A stretch of DNA of 60,206 bases, filler included. It is 9 parts of 9 records of this genome, joined end to end, with 100 filler letters (N's around TTAATTAATTAA, not from the genome) between each part and the next. Parts side by side here need not be neighbours in the genome. Positions count along the whole stretch, not along the records: positions 20,458 to 25,827 come from SRR31147125_182257; 8 more parts are not named here. The stretch is one strand, 5' to 3'. The notes below the pieces were generated by a model. That model had not been told where the DNA came from and did no database searches. It saw only the letters and a program-made list of their open reading frames with translations. A program made the position numbers and the translations under genes. The stretch's first letter is position 1. Every line of letters begins with the position of its first letter. Below are positions 7,418-53,377 of the stretch, one piece after another.

Positions 7418-7517
7418 NNNNNNNNNNNNNNNNNNNNNNNNNNNNNNNNNNNNNNNNNNNNTTAATTAATTAANNNNNNNNNNNNNNNNNNNNNNNNNNN
7501 NNNNNNNNNNNNNNNNN
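7418..7517. other. Artificial contig spacer
   Basis: N44-TTAATTAATTAA-N44, stop codons in all six frames. Confidence 0.99.
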
Positions 7518-13621: not shown

Positions 13622-13721
13622 NNNNNNNNNNNNNNNNNNNNNNNNNNNNNNNNNNNNNNNNNNNNTTAATTAATTAANNNNNNNNNNNNNNNNNNNNNNN
13701 NNNNNNNNNNNNNNNNNNNNN
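13622..13721. other. Artificial contig spacer
   Basis: N-run with central TTAATTAATTAA. Confidence 0.99.
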
Positions 13722-20357: not shown

Positions 20358-20457
20358 NNNNNNNNNNNNNNNNNNNNNNNNNNNNNNNNNNNNNNNNNNN
20401 NTTAATTAATTAANNNNNNNNNNNNNNNNNNNNNNNNNNNNNNNNNNNNNNNNNNNN
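20358..20457. other. Artificial contig spacer
   Basis: N-run with central TTAATTAATTAA. Confidence 0.99.
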
Positions 20458-20492
20458 AAAAAGTAAGGGGCAATTCACTTGAATTGCCCCTT
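20458..20492 (-). terminator. Intrinsic terminator after the beta-helix gene
   Basis: AAGGGGCAATTCA-CT-TGAATTGCCCCTT with a T-run on the minus strand. Confidence 0.8.
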
Positions 20493-20553
20493 GTCGATTG
20501 CATACTGTTTCATGATTTATCACGGCAACCGAAACTACCGTATTATACATCAA

Positions 20554-22332
20554 TTACTCAAGAGGTAATTTCCAATAAATCGCAGAAGGATCATCTGCAA
20601 CAGTCGCATTTTCAAGATATATCGTGTTTTTGGTGCCGAAAATGTCGATGCAAGGCATAGTGATGTCAAAGTTATTTTCAAGGGTGGCACAACCCTCTTC
20701 ACTGTTCACACAGGCAGCAAGGCCCGATATATAGCCTTTGTCATATTCGTTTTTAAGTTCATCCTCAGTACATTCGCCATCACAGGTATCGCTGCTGCTG
20801 ATGCCGCATGCTTCCGGATTGTCTATGCAGTATTGCTTGCCCGCTTCAAATTGAGCATCGAGCTCTTCTTGAGGGCAGGTATCGTCATCAATCTCAACAC
20901 CGCAAGCACTCATGTTATAGCATGCGCCTTTCCACCACGCATTTCCCACCAATTCGCAGTCATATTCACAATTACACAGTTCCGGATGAGCTTCGCTACA
21001 GACCGGATTGTCGGCACTGCCCACATACTCGTAGGCACCGATATCCACAAAATCGTTGATGATGCGGTCGGTTCCCTCAAGATCCTTTGTTGAGATATCA
21101 TAAGCCAGATTATTTCCGGTATCAACACAGGGAGAGTCAGAATTTAAGTGGTAATCGTCATCATCCACAGAGACAAATGATGGATCTTCGTCAATATTTG
21201 CGTTCTCGTAACTCGCTGTTCCTGAAAGAACGCTAAAATTGTTGTTAAACAGTTTATCGATGGTCACGTCTGCGTAGATATCTTGATCACCAGAGCTGTT
21301 TTCATTTTCCTGAATAATATTATTAAAAACTCGTAGGGCACTTCCTTTGTTCGCAAGTACAAGTCCCCCACCGAGATCACTGTTAGTATAATTTTTTACA
21401 ATGGTGTTGTTGACAATATCATATACAGCAGCTTTGTCATTTAAGTCAATTCCACCACTCCCCCCTGCGTAATTATTGATGATCAGATTATTGCTGAGCG
21501 TGATGGTATCTGCATTGCCATATCTGCTGTATATAATGGCACCACCGCCCCAACCTCCGCAAGAATTGTTTGAGAAAATGTTGTGGGCCAGTGTAGCTGT
21601 CGCGGTCGCGTCATTAATTCTAAGCGCACCGCCATCTTCAGAAGAATAATTACCTGAAAAGGTATTTTTATCCAGAATGACCGAGCCTATTGAGTAAATG
21701 AACACCGCGCCACCTTCTTGGCTATATCTTCCGTCTGTCGTATTATTTGTGAATGTGTTTTTATTGAGAGTCACTGAAGTAATGTCATGAACGAATAGCG
21801 CACCGCCACCATGATTATATCCACCGGAATTGTTTGAAAAGGTGCTGTTGGTCAAAGTGAACTCATAAGCGTTACGAACTTCGATACCAGACCCGTCATT
21901 GTCTTTTACCTCCAGCTCATTCAGTTCTACATCTCCCTGGGTACTGATATAAAGCCCCCCTCCGTTATCTGTAACTGTTCCTCTTAGAAGGGTCAGCCGC
22001 TCTAAAGAGATATCAACGGACTGAGAAGAAGAATCGATATACAGTACACGTCCGACGCTCCCCCCATCCAGAATGACATCACCGGTTTCCAATTCGCCTT
22101 CGGGTTGAATGGTCAGAGTTTTAGATCCGCCGGTGGAGGTAGTCTGGTATGTAAAATTTCCGGAGTAGGTACCGGCGGCTAAATAAATGGTGGTGTCGTT
22201 GTTGCTTTCTTGTGCCTCGATCAAGGCATTCTGAAACTCATCTGCCGTGGATACGTTGGATGTGGCCGCATAGAGTAGAGAGGGTACAAAACAGACAATC
22301 AAGATAATCGATAGAAGGGTGCTTCTTTTCAT
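20554..22332 (-). CDS. Secreted right-handed beta-helix protein with choice-of-anchor-Q-like end and Cys-rich C-terminal tail
   Basis: Signal peptide MKRSTLLSIILIVCFVPSLLYA; repeated FxxN...GGA(L/V) motifs; DPSFV...DYHLNSDSPCVDTG...DIGAYEY; AAGGAG RBS. Confidence 0.82.
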   Translation of the reverse strand: MKRSTLLSIILIVCFVPSLLYAATSNVSTADEFQNALIEAQESNNDTTIYLAAGTYSGNFTYQTTSTGGSKTLTIQPEGELETGDVILDGGSVGRVLYIDSSSQSVDISLERLTLLRGTVTDNGGGLYISTQGDVELNELEVKDNDGSGIEVRNAYEFTLTNSTFSNNSGGYNHGGGALFVHDITSVTLNKNTFTNNTTDGRYSQEGGAVFIYSIGSVILDKNTFSGNYSSEDGGALRINDATATATLAHNIFSNNSCGGWGGGAIIYSRYGNADTITLSNNLIINNYAGGSGGIDLNDKAAVYDIVNNTIVKNYTNSDLGGGLVLANKGSALRVFNNIIQENENSSGDQDIYADVTIDKLFNNNFSVLSGTASYENANIDEDPSFVSVDDDDYHLNSDSPCVDTGNNLAYDISTKDLEGTDRIINDFVDIGAYEYVGSADNPVCSEAHPELCNCEYDCELVGNAWWKGACYNMSACGVEIDDDTCPQEELDAQFEAGKQYCIDNPEACGISSSDTCDGECTEDELKNEYDKGYISGLAACVNSEEGCATLENNFDITMPCIDIFGTKNTIYLENATVADDPSAIYWKLPLE

Positions 22333-22515
22333 ACTTCTTCTCCTTTGGTTCAAATTATAAATTTAATACAAAAACTACACGATTTGGCAATATAGAAGTA
22401 TTTAGGAGATGTCAAGATTTTTTATGATGGAAAAATCATAAAAATGGTCGACCACATGCAAAGTTGAAACAACGGCTTTGTTTCCCTGTGCATTCATGGT
22501 TATCGCCAAATGATA

Positions 22516-24276
22516 TCAATCATCATCGCTTGAAGCGCCGAAAATCTGCTCCATATACGACGCCTGGGACTCCATCTCTTGGATATAGCTATCCATGGCG
22601 ATATATTGGGCCGTCAGAGTGTCGTACCGTTTGTCCAAAAGAGCGGTATCGTTCTCGATCTCTTCCTCCAGTTTCTCGATTTTCGTCTGGACGGCGTCCC
22701 CTTCCGCAGTGAGCAGACCGTCGCTATCGGTGTAGCTCTTTATCTTTTCATACAACAAATCGCCGAATCCCTCTTCGCCGGTGTCGGAGTCTCCGGTGAA
22801 AAAGAGGATGACGTCTTCGGCATTTTCTTCAAGGGCCTCTTCGAGAACCGAGGTGTCAAGAGACAGCGTGCCGTCCTCTTCAACGGTCAACCCCAAATCG
22901 TAGAGACTGGTGATCTCCCCATCCGTGCTGACGGTCTGCTCCAGAAAATCAATGATGTCGTCATCGATACGGGTGATGGAGGTCTTGCCGAAAAGGATCC
23001 CCTTCTCCTCGGTGTCGGTATCGTAGCTGCTGTTTTCGTCAAGACTTTCCGTGAGCCCGTTGAGGGCGTCGATGATCTCCAGAAGCCGGGTTTCGATGAT
23101 CTCGTAATCGGGAGCCACGGAGATGGTGGAGCTGCCGGTCTCCAATAGATCGAGACCGATACCGTTGATCACATCCTCGATGTCGTCGTTTGATTGCCGT
23201 TGATAATCGATGCCGTCCACGGTAAATTGCGCATTGAGATTCTCTCCGTCCGCCCCGGTACTTTCAGTCAGTGCGATGCCCATTTGCGGTTTGTAGGTAT
23301 CGTCTTCGTCATCGAACCCCAAGGCCGATGCCGCGCTGCTGTCCCCCCATGAGATGCTCACTTCCTCAAGTGTCTCTCCACCGTCGCTTTCAGTGCCTTC
23401 GATGGAAAATGTCTCGGTATCGGAATTGTAAGTGACCGTGTAGTCGATGCCGTTTTCAGATGCGTCCTCCATGGCCGTCTCGATGGCGGCGGCCAGATCA
23501 TCCCCGCTGCTGTAGGAACCGTCGGCAATGGTGGCGGTGAGCGCTTCCCCCAACGTCCCGTCGCCGACCCGTTCCTGGAAAACAATCTCGTTGTTTCCCG
23601 ATGCTGCGGACATTTCAAGGGGTTCGGTTTCACTGATGGTGACGCTTTGATCGCTCTCCATGGCTGTGGAGAGCAGCTGGGTGTCGATGAAGATACGACT
23701 CTCTTCGCCGGAATCGTCGCTCTTCAGCACCAGCTTGTAAGGCTCGTCCCCGATTCCCGTATCCACTATGGATGCGGTGACACCGGGGTTGGCATCGTCT
23801 TCGTTGATGAGAGTGACAAGATCTTCCAGTGTGGTTCCCGCCTCCACGGTGAGGGAGACTTCGGTGCCGTCTTCTCCCAGGTGGTAGGAAAAGGACATGT
23901 CACCGGTGCTGACAATGGCCGTTTCAGACGATACCCCTTCCGAAATCCAGGTACTGTAGGTTGCCAGGGCCTCCACATTCACCGTATGGGTGACATCGTC
24001 GGCGTCGGCAACGGACTCGGCATCCACCGAACTTCCCGATGTGGTAATCTCGCTTTCCGTGAAGTTGGATCCCATGGAGAGATCCAAGGCGCTGGTTCGC
24101 ATGTTAAGAAGCGAAAGGCTGATTTCATCGATCTCCGAGCCCAACAACTCCAGCTCTTCAATTTCCTCTTCCTTGGCGTCGATGGGTTGCTGATCCACTT
24201 CACGAAGCTGTTCAAGAATACTCGAAATGTCAATACCGGATCCAATGCCGAGGGTTGATATACTGCCCGTACTCAT
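22516..24276 (-). CDS. fliD: Flagellar filament cap protein, highly acidic
   Basis: GSISTLGIGSGIDISSILEQL N-terminus; VTASIVDTG...YKLVLKS; NAQFTVDGIDYQRQSND; RYDTLTAQYIAMDSYIQEM C-terminus. Confidence 0.9.
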   Translation of the reverse strand: MSTGSISTLGIGSGIDISSILEQLREVDQQPIDAKEEEIEELELLGSEIDEISLSLLNMRTSALDLSMGSNFTESEITTSGSSVDAESVADADDVTHTVNVEALATYSTWISEGVSSETAIVSTGDMSFSYHLGEDGTEVSLTVEAGTTLEDLVTLINEDDANPGVTASIVDTGIGDEPYKLVLKSDDSGEESRIFIDTQLLSTAMESDQSVTISETEPLEMSAASGNNEIVFQERVGDGTLGEALTATIADGSYSSGDDLAAAIETAMEDASENGIDYTVTYNSDTETFSIEGTESDGGETLEEVSISWGDSSAASALGFDDEDDTYKPQMGIALTESTGADGENLNAQFTVDGIDYQRQSNDDIEDVINGIGLDLLETGSSTISVAPDYEIIETRLLEIIDALNGLTESLDENSSYDTDTEEKGILFGKTSITRIDDDIIDFLEQTVSTDGEITSLYDLGLTVEEDGTLSLDTSVLEEALEENAEDVILFFTGDSDTGEEGFGDLLYEKIKSYTDSDGLLTAEGDAVQTKIEKLEEEIENDTALLDKRYDTLTAQYIAMDSYIQEMESQASYMEQIFGASSDDD

Positions 24277-24294
24277 AACGTTTTTTCCTCTTTA

Positions 24295-25383
24295 TCACGA
24301 AGTCGTATTAATAGAATTTTGATGAGAATCAACTTTTTTAGAAAGGGGAGGCTCCATACAATAGGGGACGCTATTTCCCGAAAAGAGTTCCAAATTTTTA
24401 TCAATTGATTGTTTTGACGTTTGTTTTAATGCCAGTTTTGGTAATACATAGGCACTCCCCGGTCTGAATTTGAAGCTACTCGGAAATATCGAATACCTGC
24501 TTTGCAACTGTTCCCAAGACGTTTTCATCTTGAAATGCCTTTGGCGAAGGTTCATGTTGTAGTTCATCAAATGGGTGGAGAGGCTGTCCATGTAAGGCCA
24601 TGGGGAAGGAATTCTCGTGAAGGAAATAGATCGAAGATGTTGAAAAGTCCTCTGTTGATACTGTGCCAAAGGGTAGAATTCCAGATCTTTTTTCCGGCAA
24701 TACGATTCAACACCGTTTAGGAGATTTACCGGATCGATTTGGTTTTTATTGCTCTGATCAATCGACTCCTGACTAAATTCAATCATTGAAGGAAGTAGAA
24801 TTCCCAATGCGTTTACCGGAAGCAAAGATATCGCTTTTTCAAGAAACGACACGGTATCTTCAGTGATACATGAAGGGATTATTTCCGCATAACACCACCT
24901 TGAGGAGCAATCCAGAAGGGTATGCAAAAAACATGGGGCTTCCCACTCCAAAGCCATGGGTAACCGAATCATCGTGTGATAGAGATAAGCCCCTCGATGA
25001 TTTTTTAGATCGCCATCCATGTATTTGTCCAATCGCTCCAAACGTGAGATCCGATATTTGTTCAGACAACGATTCAATGTAGATCTGGAACACTGTTGTT
25101 CTAGGGTTGACCGGACGACGTACAACAGGTCATCGAGACCCAATTGGAGGGTCAGACGCAGTAGAACTGCGATGATTTCCTGATCCTGAGTCAATGCCTT
25201 TGATATTTTTTTTGGAGTATGGGATCCATCATACACCGAGTCTCTTTTTTTCCACTTTCGAATTGTGGTTTCACTGACCCCTAATTTTTGTGCAAGTTCA
25301 GCCACCTTTACATGGGGATTCTGTTGGATGAATTGTCTTTGGGCCGGGGTCGTGGTGGCATTTTTATGAAGATGTATTTGCAT
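24295..25383 (-). CDS. IS481-family transposase-derived protein with conserved HTH and apparently lost DDE catalytic residues
   Basis: N-terminus MQIHLHKNATTTPAQR...VSETTIRKWKKRDSVYDGSHTP...LGLDDLL...SRSTLNRCL is IS481-like. In the core, YLYHTMIRLP, ILLPSMIEF and RTFQHLRS replace the recalled motifs YLHxDvKYLP, ILTDNGxEF and QTNGMVER. Confidence 0.8.
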   Translation of the reverse strand: MQIHLHKNATTTPAQRQFIQQNPHVKVAELAQKLGVSETTIRKWKKRDSVYDGSHTPKKISKALTQDQEIIAVLLRLTLQLGLDDLLYVVRSTLEQQCSRSTLNRCLNKYRISRLERLDKYMDGDLKNHRGAYLYHTMIRLPMALEWEAPCFLHTLLDCSSRWCYAEIIPSCITEDTVSFLEKAISLLPVNALGILLPSMIEFSQESIDQSNKNQIDPVNLLNGVESYCRKKDLEFYPLAQYQQRTFQHLRSISFTRIPSPWPYMDSLSTHLMNYNMNLRQRHFKMKTSWEQLQSRYSIFPSSFKFRPGSAYVLPKLALKQTSKQSIDKNLELFSGNSVPYCMEPPLSKKVDSHQNSINTTS

Positions 25384-25698
25384 TGATCGTATTTTCCCAT
25401 GAAGTTGTCGTTCCGTTAAATGCGCTGTTTTTTTGATGGCGCATGCGTATCTGTTTCTTCCCCGGAATGAGACCAAGAAGTGTGCCCTTGTTTTATTTCC
25501 TGACATAACAACTGAAAAAATTTTGTTGAATGAATCGTTGTATCAAGAAAGAAAACTTCATCAATTCAAACTATTACGACAATTTCATTTTTCATAAAAT
25601 TTATTGAACAAAATTATGGAGAAGCATCATGTTTGAGCGGGGAGCCTGTACTTTATAAAGGTGAATAGAGAGTGATTTCGACAATAATGATCCTCGAT

Positions 25699-25714
25699 TC
25701 GACATTTATGTCGA
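25699..25714. promoter_or_regulatory. Palindrome upstream of the IS481-derived gene, candidate regulator site
   Basis: TCGACAT-TT-ATGTCGA, with an extra TTCGACA half-site at ~25677. Confidence 0.4.
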
Positions 25715-25827
25715 GCATACAGGGGGGAGTGAGATTTTAAATCATCCATTGGGGAGAAGATACGGCGAGCTTTTCAAACATAAGGAATCGGTTTTAATTA
25801 GGGATTCAGCAGCTTTTGATTTACCAC

Positions 25828-25927
25828 NNNNNNNNNNNNNNNNNNNNNNNNNNNNNNNNNNNNNNNNNNNNTTAATTAATTAANNNNNNNNNNNNNNNNN
25901 NNNNNNNNNNNNNNNNNNNNNNNNNNN
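25828..25927. other. Artificial contig spacer
   Basis: N-run with central TTAATTAATTAA. Confidence 0.99.
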
Positions 25928-37222: not shown

Positions 37223-37322
37223 NNNNNNNNNNNNNNNNNNNNNNNNNNNNNNNNNNNNNNNNNNNNTTAATTAATTAANNNNNNNNNNNNNNNNNNNNNN
37301 NNNNNNNNNNNNNNNNNNNNNN
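37223..37322. other. Artificial contig spacer
   Basis: N-run with central TTAATTAATTAA. Confidence 0.99.
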
Positions 37323-42929: not shown

Positions 42930-43029
42930 NNNNNNNNNNNNNNNNNNNNNNNNNNNNNNNNNNNNNNNNNNNNTTAATTAATTAANNNNNNNNNNNNNNN
43001 NNNNNNNNNNNNNNNNNNNNNNNNNNNNN
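42930..43029. other. Artificial contig spacer
   Basis: N-run with central TTAATTAATTAA. Confidence 0.99.
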
Positions 43030-48048: not shown

Positions 48049-48148
48049 NNNNNNNNNNNNNNNNNNNNNNNNNNNNNNNNNNNNNNNNNNNNTTAATTAA
48101 TTAANNNNNNNNNNNNNNNNNNNNNNNNNNNNNNNNNNNNNNNNNNNN
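48049..48148. other. Artificial contig spacer
   Basis: N-run with central TTAATTAATTAA. Confidence 0.99.
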
Positions 48149-53277: not shown

Positions 53278-53377
53278 NNNNNNNNNNNNNNNNNNNNNNN
53301 NNNNNNNNNNNNNNNNNNNNNTTAATTAATTAANNNNNNNNNNNNNNNNNNNNNNNNNNNNNNNNNNNNNNNNNNNN
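53278..53377. other. Artificial contig spacer
   Basis: N-run with central TTAATTAATTAA. Confidence 0.99.

Follow-up and report, generated by a model that had tools for sequence, protein, structure and literature searches.

Why does a gene that resembles a transposase stand directly in front of the gene for the flagellar filament cap? The question is raised by a DNA stretch of 60,206 nucleotides (the window), in which an open reading frame (ORF) of 362 codons, here named tnpL, precedes fliD on the same strand with a gap of 18 bp. A first-pass annotation, made from the letters alone, had described this arrangement and proposed a domesticated, catalytically dead transposase of the insertion sequence (IS) family IS481, possibly acting as a regulator of fliD. 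The arrangement was confirmed, with both genes on the minus strand (Table 1). The family to which tnpL belongs is homologous to IS481 transposases and has a dead active site; its genes are low in copy number, under purifying selection and in conserved synteny, and a conserved DNA motif goes with them. With a probability of about 0.9, we consider tnpL to be a domesticated, catalytically dead IS481 transposase.

The window itself consists of at least nine contigs of 5-11 kb (46-61% GC), joined into a pseudomolecule by artificial 100-bp linkers, each composed of 44 N, a 12-nt spacer with stops in all frames and another 44 N. Since the gene order across these linkers is arbitrary, the real neighbourhood of tnpL is confined to the contig at positions 20458-25827 (5,370 bp). 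The GC spread of the pieces suggests a mixed or binned source.

IS481 homology and loss of the catalytic triad

The NCBIfam model for IS481 transposases (NF033577) matches the tnpL protein with 86.1 bits (E 2.8e-24) over profile positions 12-188 of 284, well below its curated whole-protein cut-off of 224 bits. The relatives P0001 and P0031 reach 64.6 and 51.8 bits, and true transposases 225-270 bits. Eight transposase candidates from an exhaustive protein search, six over the NF033577 cut-off and two just under it, served as reference set. In the alignment the tnpL protein is collinear with all eight as far as the C-terminal F-x-x-x-P, so the end-to-end collinearity that had been noticed by eye holds. 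Identity amounts to 26-30% over the full length and to 45-58% within the first ~120 residues. In Pfam, the helix-turn-helix (HTH) models HTH_29, HTH_Tnp_1 and HTH_23 are over cut-off, and rve is matched merely with E 0.018. The helices predicted for residues 13-46 and 66-109 have values around 90 in the predicted local distance difference test (pLDDT). These HTH matches, together with a ratio of nonsynonymous to synonymous substitutions (dN/dS) of 0.14 for this part, bear out the description of a strongly kept DNA-binding N-terminus.

An AlphaFold model (mean pLDDT 74.6, predicted template-modelling score 0.66) predicts two HTH modules followed by a core of the order b1-b2-b3-a-b4-a-b5-a. In this model T137 is located on b1, P198 at the end of b4 and R251 on the helix after b5, which corresponds to the canonical geometry of the Asp-Asp-Glu (DDE) triad. 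The same three columns contain D, D and E in every transposase row of the alignment. Hence, alignment and predicted fold agree with the earlier statement that all three DDE positions are replaced. The best matches of the model in a Foldseek search of the PDB were IstA of IS21 (E 7e-9), retroviral integrases, TnsB and Mos1, with 147 matches at E <= 0.001.

The replacement is not peculiar to the window. Among 92 non-identical family sequences the first catalytic column never contains D or E, the second contains no D and E in six, and the third contains E in eight and D in five. Non-catalytic Asp columns common to the family and the transposases are kept in all 92. Without the D, D and E that bind the metal, the tnpL protein is unable to cleave or join DNA. 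That it still works as a transposase or recombinase by way of other acidic residues is most improbable. In favour of this reading, many members of the clade found next to flagellin genes carry an Asp one position past the second catalytic column, and D158 is invariant. D158, however, is no replacement, since it is equally invariant in true transposases beside their DDE triad. In addition, an acidic residue never occupies the first column, an Asp close to the second position is missing from the tnpL proteins of both the window and its nearest relative, and genomes harbour one or two loci in fixed places.

According to the family alignment, the protein starts with M-Q-I-H-L-H-K-N at position 25383, and a longer frame of 403 codons from 25506 is unsupported. 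At the other end, the previously noted extension of ~55 residues was assigned to residues 309-362. It exceeds the usual end of family members and is unconserved, and the tails in the window and in its sister locus L018 (Desulfamplus) are unalike. The DNA had also been called AT-rich. This applies in relative terms only: the tnpL ORF has 42% GC and thus less than fliD with 54%. The 444 bp upstream of tnpL have 37%.

Distribution of the family and selection

A word-index search yielded 68 homologues of tnpL with 35-51% identity and lengths of ~305-350 residues, nearly all on a single contig. The source names among them include Desulfobacter, Desulfospira, Desulforapulum and Desulfobacula. An exhaustive search revealed a clear step, as 22 cluster representatives below E 1e-30 were followed by ordinary IS481 proteins that match the first ~205 residues only. 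Seven metagenomic IS481-like ORFs of ~320-330 residues (L037-L043) match nothing but the N-terminal 204-226 residues of tnpL. They lack significant terminal inverted repeats, so their ends may be short, or some of them may also be immobile derivatives.

In the family of sulfate reducers to which L018 belongs, tnpL is present in 29 of 161 species genomes, 25 of them with one match and the rest with one or two loci. An order-wide sample contained it in 3 of 401 genomes, all from the same family; five candidates were scored per genome, so that the others count as 'not found'. In this one family of sulfate reducers tnpL is a fixed, low-copy chromosomal gene, in line with the low copy number expected of a domesticated gene. 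Copy number and mobility were counted in the genomes of relatives, and for the window organism within the window, where one copy of tnpL is found.

No terminal inverted repeats flank tnpL in the window, neither within 400 bp on each side nor in a later search reaching into the ORF, which agrees with the first-pass annotation. Likewise, none were detected within 400 bp on each side of 38 family loci. The 3' arm of a short inverted pair that is kept in some relatives (see below) lies inside the ORF. The IS controls L021 and L044 were positive in this test, with repeats of 47 nt and 27 nt.

Purifying selection is evident from dN/dS values calculated according to Nei and Gojobori (median 0.21, range 0.14-0.49) for 161 pairs with dS of 0.05-1.5; this set does not include L079 and L080, which have no intact coding sequence under the start-codon pattern used. 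A dN/dS below 1, as anticipated, is thus found at the level of the family. The N-terminal HTH part has a value of 0.14 and the dead core one of 0.25. Of the 74 columns with a conservation of 90% or more among the other 37 members, the tnpL protein of the window keeps 64, which is at the low end, since leave-one-out controls gave fractions of 0.87-1.0. In a quick IQ-TREE phylogeny, calculated without the split copies L017 and L020, the tnpL family forms one clade against seven transposases (support 100). Since the family is one clade and the first Asp is absent in all members, the loss of the DDE triad is ancestral and old.

A decaying IS481 copy, open by chance, would also have lost its DDE triad and would score far under the NF033577 cut-off. 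The disordered, unconserved tail and a GC content 12 points under that of fliD would fit such a pseudogene as well. This explanation is nevertheless very improbable. The 362 codons are free of stops, and intact orthologues exist in 29 genomes. The dN/dS values, the conserved synteny and the 64 retained columns speak for a kept gene, and a whole clade without the first Asp implies an ancient loss rather than recent decay. At family level, copy number, synteny and purifying selection consequently support the earlier proposal of a kept gene.

Genomic context

The gene next to tnpL in 30 species loci is a giant flagellin in 20, a convergent FlgL in two and an EF-hand protein in seven. In the remaining locus tnpL stands behind a PAS/sigma-54 activator and has no flagellar or EF-hand neighbour. 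Loci from contig collections fall into the same context classes. The giant flagellins comprise 790-960 residues and are encoded on the same strand as tnpL. These flagellin-type loci represent a filament island of ~17 kb with FlgK, FlgL, flagellin and, about 12 kb away, FliD, often flanked by a divergent cluster of an anti-sigma factor, an extracytoplasmic function (ECF) sigma factor and a sigma-54 activator. In the EF-hand-type loci a histidine kinase and an OmpR-type regulator often come after the small acidic EF-hand protein. The flagellar synteny that had been expected is therefore found: filament genes adjoin tnpL in 22 of the 30 species loci, but the conserved partner is the giant flagellin, and among the loci seen fliD takes this place in the window only. 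In the tree, the flagellin-type tnpL genes form one nested clade (support 100) and those of the EF-hand type a basal grade.

Some features of the partner genes are recorded here in their own right. The 5' leaders of the giant flagellin genes (16 loci, e.g. L005 7100-7290) contain a sigma-28-like promoter, two conserved blocks that can form hairpins, and sites with GGA, of which one is located at the ribosome-binding site. Such leaders are reminiscent of CsrA-controlled flagellin leaders. The EF-hand proteins 3' of tnpL (L001 1977-2630, L016 7181-7819, L018 7580-8407 and others) have a conserved N-terminus, which read by eye contains no signal peptide, a Gly/Met/Pro-rich linker and two EF-hand pairs. 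A look-up in an atlas returned only generic EF-hand clusters as look-alikes, one of which bears the name of a type III calcium-binding effector family and is no more than a lead.

A conserved DNA motif in the tnpL family

Alignment of the spacers between tnpL and flagellin from 16 loci revealed the sigma-28-like promoter, structured elements of the 5' untranslated region and, further upstream, a conserved block of 18 nt. A position weight matrix (PWM) was built from 15 flagellin-type copies of this block alone. With this matrix, a second, inverted copy was detected 64-66 bp downstream in eight flagellin-type loci. The same motif is present in the EF-hand-type loci: it is located 40-63 bp 5' of the tnpL start in 10 of 12 loci (each p <= 0.026), and 11 of the 12 have an inverted copy at the 3' end of tnpL (each p <= 0.024). 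The 3' copy is in frame 1 in most of these loci and in frame 2 in L016, and it contains the stop codon in L001, L028 and L031. Since two reading frames are used and a stop codon lies inside some copies, this copy is conserved as DNA and not as peptide. A matrix-free search for inverted repeats recovered the same pair in 6 of 12 EF-hand-type and in none of 16 flagellin-type loci.

The arrangement of the pair depends on the context. In EF-hand-type loci its arms (14-21 nt) bracket tnpL; in flagellin-type loci an inverted motif pair is located upstream of the flagellin promoter. Because one arm of the EF-hand-type pair shortly precedes the ORF and the other overlaps its end, an arrangement also seen in the IS control L044, we read the arms as putative relic transposon ends. 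Since tnpL is the sole gene common to both contexts, the motif is the best candidate for a tnpL binding site.

Two further candidates were rejected. That the motif pair is a multicopy miniature element was tested by BLAST with a 116-bp stretch, which matched orthologous places only, in three genomes. A palindrome of 16 nt, present in 2-3 copies at -215 to -144 before the tnpL start of eight loci (L003, L005, L006, L007, L008, L011, L015 and L081), stands 5' of a -24/-12 (sigma-54-type) promoter of tnpL. As an operator of the family it was discarded: it occurs only in these eight loci, which have the divergent sigma-54-activator cluster, and is absent from Desulfobacter-type loci, EF-hand-type loci and the window. 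Because it is confined to loci with the activator cluster, it is probably the upstream site of that activator.

The motif also bears on an exapted role other than DNA binding, for example as a partner or chaperone of exported, acidic proteins without signal peptide, which would be contacted by the degenerate core. Flagellin, FliD and the EF-hand proteins are all acidic, their N-termini, read by eye, contain no signal peptide, and the core is under purifying selection (dN/dS 0.25). The HTH region is, however, the most conserved part (dN/dS 0.14) with many invariant columns in common with active transposases, and a conserved DNA motif travels with tnpL. Known flagellar chaperones, moreover, are small helical proteins. 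We therefore regard a chaperone-like role as improbable.

The tnpL-fliD locus of the window

The features of the contig are compiled in Table 1. The fliD product is matched by the Pfam models FliD_N (49.4 bits), Flagellin_IN and FliD_C (138.2 bits), each above its cut-off. The tnpL-fliD junction recurs in a contig of 10,128 bp from run X1, which was obtained with a different assembler, spans the entire contig of the window and has the same end point. Since X1 may be the source data, this agreement demonstrates an assembler-independent junction only and not independent data. Its only difference consists of three extra bases (one codon) at position 21459 within the beta-helix gene. The last 30 bp of the window's contig (25798-25827) are repetitive in the sample, with a depth of 356 compared to 91, and at least seven other contigs start or end there; no second occurrence of this repeat was found inside the window.

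Table 1. Coordinates of the features at the tnpL-fliD locus and of the linkers in the window.
Feature	Position	Strand	Remarks
tnpL, 362 codons + stop, catalytically dead IS481-transposase-derived protein	24295-25383	minus	stop codon 24295-24297
N-terminal DNA-binding region, residues 1-122, helical HTH modules, best-conserved part	25018-25383	minus	
Degenerate RNase-H-like (DDE-type) core, residues 131-305	24469-24993	minus	
DDE-equivalent codons	T137 24973-24975; P198 24790-24792; R251 24631-24633	minus	
C-terminal extension, residues 309-362	24298-24459	minus	predicted disordered (pLDDT < 50)
Single 18-nt motif copy, candidate relic right end / operator	24396-24413	plus	PWM score 15.1
tnpL-fliD spacer, 18 bp, purine-rich ribosome-binding site for fliD	24277-24294	minus	sequence
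fliD, flagellar filament cap, 586 residues, very acidic (24% D+E)	22516-24276	minus	Pfam and NCBIfam FliD models
Right-handed beta-helix protein, 599 residues, 3' of fliD	20554-22353	minus	Pfam Beta_helix and NosD
Non-coding DNA, 444 bp, 5' of tnpL up to contig end	25384-25827	minus	
Linkers	7418-7517, 13622-13721, 20358-20457, 25828-25927, 37223-37322, 42930-43029, 48049-48148, 53278-53377		

No sigma-28-like or canonical -24/-12 element that could serve fliD was found inside tnpL. The 5' region of tnpL contains only a weak -24/-12-like element at 25473-25486, the -12 part of which is not canonical. Because of the 18-bp gap and because no fliD promoter was recognized, co-transcription is the simplest reading, and tnpL and fliD probably form one transcript in the window.

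A single copy of the motif lies within the C-terminal extension of tnpL, inverted relative to the gene and 120 bp 5' of the fliD ATG. In strand and frame it agrees with the 3' copies of the EF-hand-type relatives. When the 3' region was simulated on that strand, 8 of 5000 runs reached its score (p 0.002), and the empirical background of the matrix is two matches in 216 kb. These values are suggestive of a real motif copy at 24396-24413, and only that. If the copy is real, the ORF reads through the old right end into former flanking DNA and stops 18 bp before fliD.

The filament genes of related genomes provide some background. Four of five genomes checked contain two fliD genes and several flagellins, i.e. 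two filament sets. In G002-G005 the first set consists of a flagellin of 800-960 residues and a FliD of ~690 residues, the second of flagellins of 1100-1470 residues directly followed by a FliD of ~560 residues. FliD of the window shares 56% identity with that of G001, the gene of which is cut by a contig end. Its identity to FliD of the tnpL-bearing island is 38-39%, and to FliD of the second filament set 30%.

Proposed function

For the family as a whole we propose the following scenario. An IS481 transposase was very probably domesticated in such a way that its sequence-specific DNA-binding head and RNase-H-like body were kept and catalysis was lost. The protein would act as a transcription regulator via the 18-nt motif, presumably a remnant of the element's own ends, and the degenerate core may serve oligomerization or partner contacts. 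In most species tnpL and its motif pair are located just 5' of the giant flagellin promoter. In the window, the expression of a filament component would be tied to the level of tnpL itself. Judged from the sequence, we lean towards a DNA-binding regulator that acts through the shared motif. For control of fliD in the window organism our estimate falls slightly short of even odds. More tentatively, and with some doubt, the entire IS may have been domesticated as a unit, the dead transposase becoming a transcription factor and the terminal repeats operators, and may have been rewired at least twice to filament genes: to the giant flagellin in one clade and to fliD in the window.

Several observations weigh against parts of this scenario. 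With regard to the fold, a different arrangement of the domains keeps the Foldseek TM-scores low (0.27). With regard to selection, that of the window's own lineage is not measurable, since dS to the nearest relative is saturated. The motif is unlike the ends of both IS controls, and 11 IS481-like loci gave one weak PWM match; just 2 of 10 testable IS481-like loci show clear ends. As the motif resembles no control ends, its reading as relic ends is based on position and orientation only. The flagellin-type motif might serve another factor of the neighbouring regulator cluster instead. Locus L018 has neither a 5' nor a 3' copy in the PWM search. In the window no 5' copy was found (best score -2.6, p 0.51), and the 3' copy is shifted by 45 nt away from the conserved F-x-F-R-P when compared to relatives. 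Measured against whole simulated contigs its score is marginal, being reached in 77 of 1000 (p 0.077). The context of the window is likewise exceptional. fliD is located directly 3' of tnpL in one of about 56 loci, so this link may be an accident of the lineage. Furthermore, the subgroup of L026, L035 and L053 stands behind a sigma-54 activator and has no adjoining flagellar or EF-hand gene. Finally, DNA binding, the role of the motif as operator, co-transcription and control of fliD or flagellin are what we infer.

The same evidence has to be weighed for a regulator without a flagellar function in this organism, namely an EF-hand-type copy that mainly controls itself or another target and came to lie beside fliD by rearrangement. 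The tnpL gene of the window is sister to that of L018 within the EF-hand-linked grade (support 96), and the surroundings of L018 are non-flagellar, with genes for an EF-hand protein, an ATP-grasp protein, a transglutaminase and a hydrogenase. The rarity of the fliD adjacency and the marginal motif copy point in the same direction. An apparent synteny of the window with L018 via an oxidoreductase gene (cluster c24) is void, because this gene belongs to a different contig of the pseudomolecule. However, the 18-bp gap on the same strand without a recognizable fliD promoter points to a single transcript. A second, independent association with a filament gene is also unlikely to arise by chance in a family in which about 20 of 30 loci are already at flagellin. 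In addition, FliD of the window is nearer to FliD of the tnpL-bearing cluster (38-39%) than to that of the other cluster (30%). Overall, we consider a non-flagellar regulator rather unlikely.

Comparison with known systems

The proteins of the NF033577 family and tnpL share N-terminal HTH modules and an RNase-H-like core in collinear order. The inverted pair of the EF-hand-type relatives is also located at the positions of IS ends, with the 3' arm over the ORF end as in L044. In contrast to IS481 transposases, tnpL has no D-D-E triad, an HMM score (86 bits) under the cut-off of 224 bits, fixed low-copy loci with conserved neighbours, and a purifying selection like that of host genes.

In eukaryotes there are well-documented cases of transposases that were exapted as regulators. 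Eukaryotic transposase-derived transcription factors bind relic transposon ends, and they belong to other superfamilies and another domain of life. The logic proposed for tnpL would be the same: a protein without catalysis still has its DNA-binding domain and uses the old ends as regulatory sites.

Documented prokaryotic examples of such exaptation are TldR, derived from TnpB, and the HUH enzyme TnpA-REP. TldR proteins are described as nuclease-dead, TnpB-derived, RNA-guided repressors beside flagellin genes (bioRxiv 10.1101/2023.11.30.569447; 10.1101/2025.07.22.666180). TldR and tnpL have in common a transposon-encoded nuclease without catalysis that is kept by selection and linked to filament genes. 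The proteins themselves are unrelated: TldR has the TnpB/RuvC fold and a guide RNA, whereas tnpL has HTH modules and a DDE-type core and presumably recognizes DNA directly. TldR is reported to be encoded by phages, whereas tnpL is a chromosomal gene confined to a single family of sulfate reducers. No TnpB family was found among the Pfam and NCBIfam matches. Since the folds are unrelated, the parallel is an analogy only.

TnpA-REP (RAYT) has been called the first prokaryotic domesticated transposase (PMC8266576). It resembles tnpL as a low-copy, host-kept IS derivative and recognizes short repeats related to old ends. TnpA-REP is, however, an HUH/Y1 enzyme still active on many REP copies, whereas tnpL is of the dead DDE type with the motif at its own locus only. 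In the open-access literature, with most subscription journals outside its scope, we found no paper on a stand-alone DDE-type IS transposase turned into a conserved host regulator with relic ends, and none on the tnpL family.

The tnpL family thus offers a testable case, with a dead enzyme, a candidate 18-nt operator and defined candidate targets in the giant flagellin, FliD and the EF-hand protein. Cultured hosts are available as well, because named strains of Desulfobacter, Desulfospira and Desulforapulum carry relatives. It represents a second, independent line of transposon nuclease recruited beside flagellar filament genes. If the proposed regulation is true, it would be the DDE-type, protein-only equivalent both of the RNA-guided TldR repressors and of the eukaryotic transposase-derived proteins that bind relic ends, and cells with two filament gene sets could choose or tune one of them.

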